NCBI GenBank assembly: GCA_963834935.1
Contig: CAWIDS010000001.1
Coordinates: forward strand, 139,524-203,523
DNA length: 64,000 nt
From: Candidatus Nomurabacteria bacterium
GTDB lineage: Bacteria; Patescibacteriota; Minisyncoccia; Phycocordibacterales; CALRBL01
Direction of reading: 5' to 3'
How positions within the stretch are numbered: position 1 is the first letter of the stretch; each line of letters opens with the position of its first letter. The position numbers were made by a program, and so were the translations under genes. The notes under the pieces were generated by a model. It was not told the origin of the DNA. It worked only from the letters and a program-made list of their open reading frames with translations, and searched no databases. Below, one piece after another: positions 33,917-35,660 of this stretch.

Positions 33917-34074
33917 GTTTATTCTCTATTTTGTTCCGTCCTAATTGTTATTTTTGGTCTTTCCCAATGTCCGCCGGTTTAAGGTTCCGACAAACCCTTC
34001 TGTGCTCAATTGAGGCACAGAAAATCGACTCCGTAAGCCTTACTGCTCCGAAGAGCAATGAGACGATTTTCAAA

Positions 34075-35660
34075 TTGAATTATTCCACGAGCAGCTTCCG
34101 CTACCCGTGCCTTGTTACGACTTACTCCCTGTTACCAAGCTTACCGTAGGCCCACATAAGTGAGATTTCGGGTATTCCTGGTTCCCTTGAGTTGACGGGC
34201 GGTGAGTACAAGACTTGAGAACGTATTCACCGCGGTATGGCTGACCCGCGATTACTAGCAATTCCAACTTCATGAGGTCGAGTTGCAGACCTCAATCCGA
34301 ACTTGGCGCAGCTTTTATAAAGGTTGGCTCCGCCTTACGCCATTGCGTCCTGTTGTAGCTCGCCATTGTATTATGTGTGTAGCCCAGGATATCAGAGGGA
34401 CATGCTGACCTGGCGTCATCCTCGCCTTCCTCCCCAGATTTAATTAACAATCAAGCGCTTCAGAAAAATCATTTTCTTCGCTCAAGCGCTCAGGACTCGC
34501 TAAGCCGCTCAGAAAATTACTTTTCTAAGCGTTGATAGCTACTATTTTGCGAACTAAATCTGGGGCAGTCTCGGCTGACACTTGTAACAGCCAACGAGGG
34601 TTGCGTTCGTTACCCCACTTAAGGGAACAATTCAAACCACGAACTGACGACGGCCATGCATCACCTGCCTAACTAGTCCTTGTGAGGGCTACCAGTTTCT
34701 TGGAGCTTTCACGTAGGTTTCAAACCCGGGTAAGGTTCTTCGTTTATCATCGAATTAAACCACATAATCCACTGCTTGTGCAAGTCCCCGTCTATTCCTT
34801 TGAGTTTTAGCCTTGCGGCCGTACTACCCAGGCGCTTCACTTAACGCGTTAGCTTCGCCACTCAGAGGGTCGATACTCCGAATAGCTAGTGAAGATCGTT
34901 TAGGGCGTGGACTACTGGGGTATCTAATCCCATTCGCTACCCACGCTTTCGTGTTTCAGTGTCAGGAGTGCGCCAGTTTGCTGCCTTCGCTTTCGGTGTT
35001 CCCCATGATATCAACGGATTTCACCCCTACACCATGAGTTCCACAAACCTCTCACATCCTCTAGTCATGCCGTTTCCCCCGCGATACCCCGGTTAAGCCG
35101 AAGAATTTAACGAGAGACTAACATAACCACCTACACACCCTTTACGCCCAATAATTCCGGATAACGCTCGGGGCACTCGTATTACCGCTGCTGCTGGCAC
35201 GAGTTTAGCAACCCCTTATTCATGAGGTACTATCAATGACTTTCTCCCTCATAAAAGGTTTTTACGTCCCGAAGGACTTCATCAATCACGCGGCGTCGCT
35301 CGATCAGGCTTTCGCCCATTGTCGAATATTCTCGGCTGCAGCCACCCGTAGGTGTATGGACCGTGTCTCAGTTCCATCGGTGGGGGTCACCCTCTCAGGT
35401 CCCCTAAGCGTCATTGCCTTGGTAGGCCATTACCCTACCAACTAGCTGATACTGCGCAGGCCGCTCCCATAGCGATAAATCTTTACTCCGAAGAGACCAT
35501 CGAGTATTAGTTCGCCTTTCGGCGAATTATTCCTGACTATGGGGTGCGTACCTACGTATTACTACCTCGTTCGCCACTGCCTCGATATTGCTAAAGAAGG
35601 CCGTTTGACTTGCATGCCTTATCCACGCCGCCAGCGTTCATCCTGAGCTAGGATCAAACT
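34075..35660 (-). rRNA. 16S ribosomal RNA, with a helix-40 insertion and a non-canonical 3' tail
   Basis: The 5' end is the reverse complement of 35644-35660 (AGAGTTTGATCCTAGCTCAG). The reverse complement of GACGGGCGGTGAGTACAAG is at about 34190, and AAGTCGTAACAAGG is near 34110. Helix 45 reads GGTAGCGGAAGCTGCTCGTGG, then the tail is AATAATTCAATT where ATCACCTCCTTA is expected. Confidence 0.9.

Follow-up and report, generated by a model that had tools for sequence, protein, structure and literature searches.

Loss of the anti-Shine-Dalgarno (anti-SD) sequence from 16S rRNA is rare in bacteria. In Parcubacteria, CCUCCU is found in only 48% of 16S genes (Tsurumaki, Saito, Tomita, Kanai 2022, RNA 28:1041; PMC9297842). 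The Parcubacteria lineages without CCUCCU overlap with the group lacking uL1, and the authors concluded that SD helices do not form (PMC9297842). In the lineage literature, uL1 is missing, bS21 is frequently absent (PMC9297842), and era is mostly absent. The window analyzed here, a whole stretch of DNA of 64 kb, shows the same lineage-level loss of the anti-SD as this published subgroup of Parcubacteria and is another member of it. Because the trait has already been reported (PMC9297842), the case of the window is by itself a confirmation. With respect to uL1, the 64-kb window contains rplJ (51431-50943) and rplL (50909-50502), with no rplK-rplA upstream of them. The previous report scores the presence or absence of the motif only; the replacement tail, SD statistics of genes, the initiation mode, and a leaderless signature are absent there (PMC9297842). 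Full-text literature searches found no description of leaderless mRNAs or of the RBS for Parcubacteria/Patescibacteria. What is added here is a likely and testable mechanism, an extended -10 box abutting the AUG.

Anti-SD loss was counted in 128 of about 20,600 taxa by Amin et al. 2018 (PMC6107228). The bacteria without an anti-SD include Flavobacteriia (Chryseobacterium, Elizabethkingia, Riemerella, and Blattabacterium), some Mycoplasma, and Candidatus Carsonella (Lim et al. 2012; PMC6107228). As in the window, both CCUCCU and recognizable SD motifs are lost in these bacteria, and PMC6107228 reports no compensating variant SD for them. Unlike for the window, the passages of PMC6107228 that were covered make no mention of a leaderless promoter signature. 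They belong to unrelated phyla, and their losses are independent.

In Mycobacterium, Streptomyces, and Deinococcus, a large minority of genes have the -10 box a fixed short distance ahead of the start codon, and transcription of these genes begins at the A of AUG. They keep the canonical anti-SD and use SD for leadered genes. Cortes et al. 2013 reportedly deals with such leaderless-rich bacteria. The window has the same -10 box near the start, but its anti-SD is gone. In Bacteroidetes, most 16S genes contain the anti-SD, but the ribosome sequesters it and SD use is rare. Bacteroidetes and the window share SD-less genes and A-rich, unstructured starts; in the window, however, the anti-SD is mutated away and not simply present and unused. 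The mRNAs of mammalian mitochondria are leaderless or nearly so. Their small-subunit rRNA has no anti-SD (PMC10582724). They are organellar and use different factors, and the analogy with the window is one of mechanism only.

The 3' end of the 16S rRNA and its flanking regions

The window contains one full-length 16S rRNA gene on the minus strand (34073..35669), which is unlinked from 23S-5S. The Rfam model RF00177 (SSU_rRNA_bacteria) matches it end to end (35669-34073; 1318.6 bits, model positions 1-1533). Helix 45 (34086..34109, minus strand), composed of CACGGGUAGC, the GGAA loop, and GCUGCUCGUG, is intact in the Rfam structure alignment, as the earlier note had read it. It is followed by a 13-nt 3' tail (34073..34085, minus strand), GAAUAAUUCAAUU, where bacteria have GAUCACCUCCUUA; 6 of the 13 positions are identical to the canonical tail. 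The terminal UcACCUCCUUu of the Rfam model is aligned with high posterior probability to AUAAUUCAAUU (34083-34073), and the positions opposite the anti-SD CCUCC (34080-34076) are AUUCA. The absence of the anti-SD CCUCC from the 16S 3' end, which had been claimed from the letters of the DNA, is thus borne out by the alignment to an rRNA reference with structure.

A promoter-like site, TTGACT-16-TATACT, is located upstream (35833..35860, minus strand; 10 of 12 consensus matches). The folding of the leader against the trailer revealed a pre-16S processing stem of 30 bp, whose 5' strand is at 35688..35717 and 3' strand at 33918..33947 (both minus strand). The duplex of the leader and trailer, with flanks included, has an energy of -52.3 kcal/mol (RNA duplexfold). 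The unit ends with a terminator-like hairpin and U-run found by a terminator scan (33887..33915, minus strand). This hairpin is palindromic and the scan lists it on the plus strand; the T-run comes after the hairpin on the minus strand. The rest of the pre-16S 3' trailer (33948..34068, minus strand) contains two hairpins (34060-34038 and 34019-34001) and GUCGAU (34029-34024), and has no CCUCC.

An anti-SD located farther 3' or behind an insertion was considered and rejected. CCTCC was not found in the 206 nt 3' of helix 45, which were read through the processing stem and the terminator, and the same had been stated for the sequence ahead of the terminator. Different processing of the 3' end does not restore a CCUCC tail, as the trailer has none wherever the mature end lies. 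Truncation or chimerism of the 16S gene is excluded because the gene is in the middle of the contig, has its own promoter, 30-bp processing stem, and terminator, and agrees with its relatives. It is confirmed that the 16S rRNA in the window truly lacks the anti-SD and that this is no assembly artefact.

The relatives are species genomes with the same helix 45 (26-nt signature), at least 120 in number. CCUCC is missing within 27 nt of helix 45 in 120/120 species genomes, and both CCTC and CTCC are missing from the 20 nt 3' of helix 45 in all 120. The replacement tail is conserved over the 120 species as GGAWYAWUUCAA, and U is observed at tail position 13 in 119 of them. The same tail type is present in the complete genome of the cultured Minisyncoccus archaeiphilus. 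The relatives with a lineage in their titles are Patescibacteria/Parcubacteria/Paceibacteria (Nomura-, Zambryski-, Kaiser-, Adler-, and Jorgensenbacteria, Minisyncoccus, and others). Many others are labelled just "bacterium" or "uncultured Candidatus Saccharibacteria", and one "Candidatus Gastranaerophilales", labels taken here as mislabels or mis-binning. The 16S gene of the window is 80-88% identical to those of the relatives. The helix 45 signature and this identity point to an uncultured member of Paceibacteria (Parcubacteria, candidate phyla radiation (CPR)) as the source.

One metagenome contig, L215, has an identical helix 45 but the canonical GGAUCACCUCCUUUCUA tail, which shows that the tail type of the window was derived by substitution. 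For contrast, metagenomes were scanned for this loop followed by the canonical tail, and the matches came mostly from other phyla. The CPR-like contigs with the canonical tail (L215, L211, L192, L203, and a few others) contain ~10 genes altogether, which is too few to order the leaderless architecture relative to the anti-SD loss.

A canonical anti-SD might exist elsewhere in the genome, if the 16S gene in the window were pseudogenic or misassembled, or if a second rRNA operon carried CCUCC. Another 16S copy is conceivable, as 64 kb of the genome is covered; in an independent Logan assembly, the contig is interrupted close to the 5' side of the 16S gene; and a few SD-like motifs persist in the relatives. 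Against it, the gene in the window is full length, high scoring, and equipped with its own promoter, processing stem, and terminator; SD motifs are depleted in the window; 120 independent species genomes have the same tail, among them the complete genome of M. archaeiphilus; and anti-SD loss is known from the literature (PMC9297842). We consider a hidden canonical anti-SD very improbable.

Shine-Dalgarno motifs upstream of gene starts

Since the anti-SD is mutated, the ribosome is unable to form the SD helix, and the genes lack SD. The SD core (GGAG/GAGG/AGGA) was observed at -20..-3 in 4 of 66 ORFs, versus 10.3 +/- 2.9 at random positions (P=0.016). It precedes 18.7% of internal ATGs. Expressed as rates, SD cores stand before 5% of ORFs, 17% of random positions, and 50% of the starts in an E. 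coli control. With the stricter GGAG or GAGG, 1/61 genes of the window have the motif near the start versus 6/61 in the far control; E. coli, processed by the same crude ORF pipeline, has it in 22/58. Near starts, the excess of the stricter motif amounts to -8% for the window, compared with +34% for E. coli and +16% for mixed metagenome loci with the canonical tail. There is no GGAGG enrichment before starts in the window. The earlier statement that sampled starts lack SD holds for ligA, cysS, recG, recA, efp, the T2SSE-family ATPase (pilB-like), and pilin-like genes. The enrichment analysis proposed with it, run on the window ORFs, showed SD depletion upstream of starts and a positive E. coli control. 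The proposal of SD-independent initiation is supported by the CCUCC-less trailer, the SD depletion relative to E. coli, and the presence of the same tail in 120/120 relatives.

It is conceivable that an alternative pair has co-evolved, in which the new tail GAAUAAUUCAAUUUGAA or the downstream GUCGAU pairs with a new upstream motif. The conservation of the replacement tail over 120 species is in line with such a pair, as is the conserved GUCGAU about 52 nt downstream; the motif G[U/G]CG[A/G]U is found in the trailers of 96/120 relatives versus 8 expected. Against it, upstream regions pair with the canonical or the actual tail no better than controls do, and duplex energies with the actual 13-nt or 22-nt tail show no difference from those of intragenic or shuffled controls. 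Tail-complementary k-mers near starts are not enriched beyond generic AT-rich words, and Amin et al. 2018 (PMC6107228) report that other bacteria without the anti-SD have no variant SD to match. With no signal in duplex energies or k-mers, an alternative SD complementary to the new tail was rejected, and the co-evolved pair as a whole is given hardly any probability.

A few SD-like sequences are present. The earlier note regarded one GGAGG as single and an oddity. It is not single: GGAGG has 114 copies in the window on both strands, and it is rare only beside starts. The motif in question, AAGGAGGTG (33746..33754, minus strand), is the sole copy of this 9-mer in the window and does precede the ATG at 33739 by 8 nt. 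That ATG, which had been assigned to a micro-ORF, shares its frame with a longer ORF that encloses it (33823-33674), of 49 aa from GTG, or of 35 aa from ATG-AAA-AAA at 33781. The GGAGG at 33754-33746 lies inside this ORF, so it may be coding (E-K-E-V) and not a ribosome-binding site. Small ORFs 3' of the 16S gene, including this one, have no homolog in the loci of relatives by tblastn. Apart from this, the window has just one SD-like sequence before a start, AAAGGAG located 7 nt before the ATG of an orphan 98-aa ORF (16665..16961, minus strand). A broad scan for any SD-like word with any start codon was swamped by intragenic noise.

In the relatives, GGAGG is located at -13..-9 in 16 of 542 genes versus about 1.7 expected. 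The excess is small but significant and at the canonical spacing, and a strictly SD-blind ribosome gives no account of it. Among those sampled, SD-like motifs in relatives mostly precede orphan genes, and 9 of 10 have no Pfam family. The Pfam match rate is 1/10 for SD-bearing genes versus 5/9 for neighboring non-SD genes (~P=0.06, Fisher estimate), which is suggestive only of a foreign origin of the SD-bearing genes. The GGAGG persisting before a few percent of the genes in anti-SD-less genomes could have an anti-SD-independent function, rather than reflecting recent gene transfer.

The -10 box and the composition of start regions

The upstream regions are A/T-rich, as had been described, but they are more than that: many carry a -10 box at a fixed distance. 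TANNNT starts exactly at -12 in 17 of 65 window genes versus 0.8 expected (P=4e-18), and at the neighboring offsets -11 and -13 in 3 genes each. TG is present at -15/-14 in 9 of the 17 (P=1.6e-7), extending the box to TGnTAnnnT. In total, 26-37% of the window genes carry the box; a -10 hexamer ending ~6-7 nt ahead of the start in many genes is what bacterial leaderless initiation would show. Of 542 genes in the relatives, 82 have the box at -12 (15%; P=6e-52), and TG accompanies it in 43 of these (P=5e-28); E. coli has it in 1/58 genes.

Examples with the extended box 6 nt before the ATG are tgtTAAGAT of ligA (2770..2775, minus strand; ATG 2763), tgcTATACT of a predicted leaderless gene (13036..13041, minus strand; ATG 13029), tgcTAAAAT of cysS (24232..24237, plus strand; ATG 24244), tgaTAAGAT of an ftsW/rodA-family gene (43550..43555, minus strand; ATG 43543), tgcTAGAAT before the ATG at 45312 (45319..45324, minus strand), and tgtTAGAAT of ftsK (58169..58174, plus strand; ATG 58181). 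The ORF caller favors ATG and the longest ORF, so start calls are crude; all 17 box genes begin with ATG under this ATG-preferring rule. The Pfam N-terminal registers of LigA, CysS, FtsW, FtsK, and pilins agree with the predicted ATGs. For cysS, the tRNA-synt_1e profile begins from residue 20, and in the ftsW/rodA-family protein, residue 24 corresponds to profile position 24.

With the box at -12, transcription is predicted to begin with the A of AUG itself, which would yield leaderless mRNAs. Judged from the motif position, it is likely that the genes with TGnTAnnnT at -12 give leaderless mRNAs.

The start regions are also A-rich and low in structure. The MFE in 40-nt windows is -3.1 kcal/mol at starts versus -5.8 inside genes (P=1e-10). 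The A content is 43% at +3..+20 versus 26% in gene bodies, A reaches 62% at -11, and 16/66 genes have AAA as their second codon. Downstream cistrons overlap the preceding stop codon or begin 1-13 nt behind it.

These features could also be read as SD-independent but leadered initiation, as in Bacteroidetes or cyanobacteria, with ordinary 5' UTRs in which the A/U-rich upstream region including TAnnnT enhances translation or provides a standby site, for instance for protein S1. The A/T-richness with its A peak, the low structure around starts, and the seven box genes located 25 nt or less behind a same-strand gene fit such initiation. The sharp position of the box (17 genes at -12 against 3 on either side) does not, nor does the TG of the extended -10 promoter in half of the boxes. 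The box sits where the -10 hexamer stands relative to the transcription start. Among first-in-unit genes whose spacers are of promoter size, the box is overrepresented: 20 of 43 first-in-unit genes have it at -11 to -14, many of them behind intergenic spacers of only about 22-57 nt. A -10 box at a fixed short distance is the signature used by gene finders for leaderless genes in Actinobacteria and Deinococcus. Leadered initiation is considered unlikely.

Translation initiation and the replacement tail

It is probable that the anti-SD was lost by substitution and that initiation proceeds via leaderless mRNAs together with reinitiation or standby binding. The 16S tail was not deleted but point-substituted out of anti-SD function, from GAUCACCUCCUUA to GAAUAAUUCAAUU; its mature 3' end is a predicted one. 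In promoter-proximal genes, the extended -10 box (TGnTAnnnT) would set the transcription start on the A of AUG, and the resulting leaderless mRNA would not need SD. 70S ribosomes can bind leaderless mRNAs directly, as can 30S subunits carrying initiator tRNA. In downstream cistrons, the tight packing and A-rich unstructured starts may allow reinitiation or standby binding. For genes without the box, either leadered or internal, composition and spacing suggest how ribosomes may load.

Across 120 species, 15-26% of genes have the box, which suggests a heavy reliance of these ultra-small bacteria on leaderless mRNAs. Start models that assume an RBS would misplace starts in CPR gene calling, and heterologous expression of CPR genes would also be affected. 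The finding bears on initiation by a minimal ribosome, in a lineage where uL1 is missing, bS21 frequently absent, and era mostly absent.

It is possible, if slightly short of probable, that in the whole class Paceibacteria the SD/anti-SD docking was replaced by a leaderless-dominated system with reinitiation, in parallel to mitochondria and some archaea. The former anti-SD nucleotides would then be kept as the conserved WUUCA, possibly in a mini-hairpin, and the loss perhaps accompanied that of Era, the assembly GTPase reading GAUCACCUCC.

There is weak evidence for such a mini-hairpin at the 16S 3' end, a candidate UUCA-AUU-UGAA over the former anti-SD positions (34069..34079, minus strand). 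It is missing from the MFE fold of the trailer in the window. A tail stem of at least 4 bp is predicted in 64/120 relatives versus 32 in shuffles, ~two-fold, by a bespoke scan; the ungapped MAFFT alignment and varying loop length prevented a clean count of stem pairs. Compensatory variants of the tail stem are observed in some relatives, namely UUCC/GGAA, CUCA/UGAG, and GUC/GAC.

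The 3′ end of the 16S rRNA

The 16S rRNA gene (35669-34073, minus strand) is complete, with 1318.6 bits against the Rfam bacterial SSU model over model positions 1-1533. In the Rfam 3′-end alignment, helix 45 is intact at 34109-34086 (-), consisting of CACGGGUAGC, the GGAA loop, and GCUGCUCGUG. The end of the model, UcACCUCCUUu, is aligned with AUAAUUCAAUU at high posterior probability. In our own alignment to E. coli numbering, the tail at 34085-34073 (-) is GAAUAAUUCAAUU where E. coli 1530-1542 is GAUCACCUCCUUA, and AUUCA is found at the positions equivalent to the anti-Shine-Dalgarno (anti-SD) sequence CCUCC. 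The tail and the intact helix had been read from the sequence in the earlier note, and the Rfam alignment shows that reading to be exact. A 121-nt insertion is present within the 16S gene at Rfam model position ~1160 (~34440-34560, -), and the 23S rRNA (48853-45555, -) is 3299 nt long compared with 2925 nt for the model and contains insertions as well, one of them near model position 282. Insertions of this kind are typical for CPR rRNAs.

The 16S gene has its own transcription unit. The promoter scan placed a promoter-like site, TTGACT-16-TATACT, at 35860-35833 (-), and leader/trailer pairing revealed a near-perfect 30-bp duplex between 35717-35688 and 33947-33918 (-), the pre-rRNA processing stem. 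A terminator-like hairpin with a U-run (33915-33887, -) ends the unit. The 23S and 5S (45464-45356, -) genes are upstream on the same strand, unlinked from the 16S gene by 9.7 kb of protein-coding genes. No CCTCC is present in the 206 nt from helix 45 to the end of the 16S unit, as had been claimed for the region before the terminator. Thus, this rRNA has no anti-SD, whatever the position of the mature 3′ end, and a CCUCC tail generated by processing elsewhere is removed as an alternative.

Distribution of the altered tail

One genome per GTDB species was scanned with the 26-nt helix-45 signature AACAAGGCACGGGTAGCGGAAGCTGC, with no condition on the tail. The signature matched in at least 120 species. 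All matches that name a lineage are Patescibacteria/Parcubacteria/Paceibacteria, and they include Nomura-, Zambryski-, Kaiser-, Adler-, Jorgensen-, Colwell-, Staskawicz-, Lloyd-, and Taylorbacteria, as well as the cultured Minisyncoccus archaeiphilus. Many others are labeled "bacterium" or "uncultured Candidatus Saccharibacteria", and one "Candidatus Gastranaerophilales". The off-lineage labels are taken as probable mislabels or mis-binning because helix 45 and the tail are the same. Among the 120 matches listed, CCTCC is absent from the 27 nt next to helix 45, and even the shorter CCTC and CTCC do not occur over the first 20 nt. The tail is conserved as GGA-W-Y-A-W-U-U-C-A-A. The equivalent of U1537 is kept in 119 of the 120 and that of C1538 in 92. 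The anti-SD positions are occupied by AUUCA (49 genomes), UUUCA (25), UAUCC (7), UUUAU (7), and AUUCC (6). The 16S rRNA of the window is at most 88% identical to that of any of these relatives; within the group, the organism apparently represents a lineage of its own.

When metagenomes were scanned for this loop together with a canonical tail, one contig, L215, was found to have a helix 45 identical to that of the window, followed by GGAUCACCUCCUUUCUA. This indicates that the tail without anti-SD is a substituted normal tail, not a truncation.

The motif G[U/G]CG[A/G]U is observed ~52 nt past helix 45 in the trailers of 96 of the 120 relatives, against 8 expected by shuffling; the copy in the window is at 34024-34029 (-). 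It is also present in L215 and L211, another contig with a canonical tail, and may be a processing signal. The former anti-SD nucleotides could form a small hairpin, UUCA-AUU-UGAA (34079-34069). A stem of at least 4 bp is possible there in 64 of the 120 relatives, compared with 32 in shuffled sequences, and some of the variants are compensatory. The stem is marginal and does not appear in the minimum free energy (MFE) fold of the trailer.

The absence of the anti-SD here is a lineage trait already in print: Tsurumaki et al. (2022, RNA 28:1041; PMC9297842) found CCTCCT in no more than 48% of the 16S genes of Parcubacteria. According to Amin et al. (2018, PMC6107228), the anti-SD was lost in 128 of ~20,600 taxa, concentrated in Flavobacteriia, Mycoplasma, and Carsonella, where SD motifs are missing too. 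Era, a 30S assembly GTPase, reads GAUCACCUCC (PMC10582724), and era, rplA, and der are mostly missing from Paceibacteria (PMC12641178). The scarcity of era fits the loss of the anti-SD. Upstream of rplJ-rplL in the window (51431-50502, -), rplK-rplA is missing, and the neighbors there encode a 101-aa orphan protein and an LCAT-like protein. This is consistent with uL1-lacking Paceibacteria, for which 64 kb is no proof.

Start regions and predicted leaderless promoters

SD cores (GGAG, GAGG, or AGGA at -20 to -3) were scored for 66 non-overlapping long ORFs from a simple ORF caller. They precede 4 of the 66 starts; random positions give 10.3 ± 2.9 (P = 0.016), and internal ATGs 18.7%. When only ORFs of 100 aa or more are counted, the window has 5%. 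The same pipeline on 49 kb of E. coli gave 50%, versus 8% at random positions. When GGAG or GAGG at -17 to -5 was counted minus a far-upstream control, the excess was -8% in the window, +34% in E. coli, +16% in mixed metagenome loci with canonical tails, and +4% in the 120 pooled Paceibacteria loci. The earlier observation that SD motifs are missing is borne out, and SD-independent initiation is supported by the depleted cores and the trailer without anti-SD.

Upstream regions hybridize to the canonical tail more weakly than intragenic controls. A co-evolved substitute for the SD is ruled out: hybridization energies to the actual tail cannot be told from those of controls, and there is no enrichment of k-mers that could pair with it. 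Around 10 genes beside canonical-tail CPR-like 16S genes (metagenome contigs L211, L192, and L182) have no obvious SD, which hints, from a sample far too small, that low SD use may be older than the loss of the anti-SD.

The upstream regions are A/T-rich as described before, but not merely so; A is found at -11 in 62% of genes and T at -12 in 45%. TANNNT, the -10 box, starts exactly at -12 from the ATG in 17 of 65 genes versus 0.8 expected (binomial P = 4e-18), and at -11, -13, and -14 in 3, 3, and 7 genes. TG at -15/-14, the extended -10 motif, accompanies 9 of the 17 boxes (P = 1.6e-7). The signal extends over the clade: among 542 ORFs in the relatives' loci, 82 have the box at -12 (P = 6e-52), and TG accompanies 43 of these boxes (P = 5e-28). 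The E. coli control has the box in 1 of 58. Because a -10 hexamer at -12 to -7 puts the canonical transcription start at the A of AUG, leaderless mRNAs are predicted for these genes.

A box at -11 to -14 is found in 20 of 43 first-in-unit genes, with spacers of ~22-57 nt for many. Twenty-two genes begin within 25 nt of the same-strand upstream gene, most of them 1-13 nt past the stop codon or with a 4-nt overlap. The predicted ATGs agree with the Pfam registers of LigA, CysS, FtsW (residue 24 is profile position 24), and FtsK, and with the N-methylation motifs of pilins (residues 1-9). In 40-nt windows, starts have an MFE of -3.1 kcal/mol, compared with -5.8 inside genes (P = 1e-10). The A content at +3 to +20 is 43% versus 26% in gene bodies, and the second codon is AAA in 16 of 66 genes. 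The motif statistics are observed directly, and the positions of transcript ends and the way ribosomes load are inferred. The best explanation is that promoter-proximal cistrons would be initiated on leaderless mRNAs, and the remaining ones by reinitiation or standby binding at A-rich, open start regions. No description of this signature in Parcubacteria/Patescibacteria was found in the full-text literature, of which coverage is incomplete, and no priority is claimed. The leaderless promoter signature is a useful addition to the published trait.

GGAGG motifs and other genes

AAGGAGGTG at 33754-33746 (-) had been regarded as a lone, odd GGAGG. Its 8-nt spacing to the ATG at 33739 is real, but GGAGG has 114 copies in the window, and this ATG is in frame inside a longer ORF (33823-33674, -; 49/35 aa). 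An earlier start, ATG-AAA-AAA at 33781, has the A-rich context typical of the genome. Thus, the motif may be no more than coding sequence for E-K-E-V. This ORF and a 74-aa ORF downstream (33677-33453, -), which overlap at ATGA, follow a strong promoter-like site in the promoter scan (TTGACT-16-TATAAT with an upstream TG; 33882-33855, -). Both are orphans, located between the 16S terminator and tRNA-Ile(GAU) (33264-33337, -), and no homologs were found in the loci of the 120 relatives. The ATG of another orphan ORF (16961-16665, -) is preceded at 7 nt by AAAGGAG.

In the relatives, GGAGG starts at -13 to -9 in 16 of 542 genes (~3%), versus ~1.7 expected from other upstream positions (Poisson P = 5e-11). 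These genes are scattered over many loci, in genomes without the 16S anti-SD (for example, L084:1081-1983, L084:2005-2715, L106:6215-6694, L019:5521-6252, and L039:6906-7844). Nine of the ten clearest have no Pfam family, and the tenth is purC; neighboring non-SD genes have a Pfam match in 5 of 9 cases versus 1 of 10 (P ~ 0.06 by our own Fisher estimate). The economical reading is that the GGAGG genes would have been recently transferred from SD-using donors.

The presence of tRNA-Ile(UAU) (23501-23577, +) alongside tRNA-Ile(GAU) suggests AUA decoding without a lysidine-modified CAU tRNA. A type IV pilus cluster (3348-14319, -) encodes five pilin-like proteins with N-methylation motifs, a prepilin peptidase, a PilC-like protein, two T2SSE ATPases, a response regulator, and PilO-like and PilM-like proteins. 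Such clusters are common among CPR bacteria.
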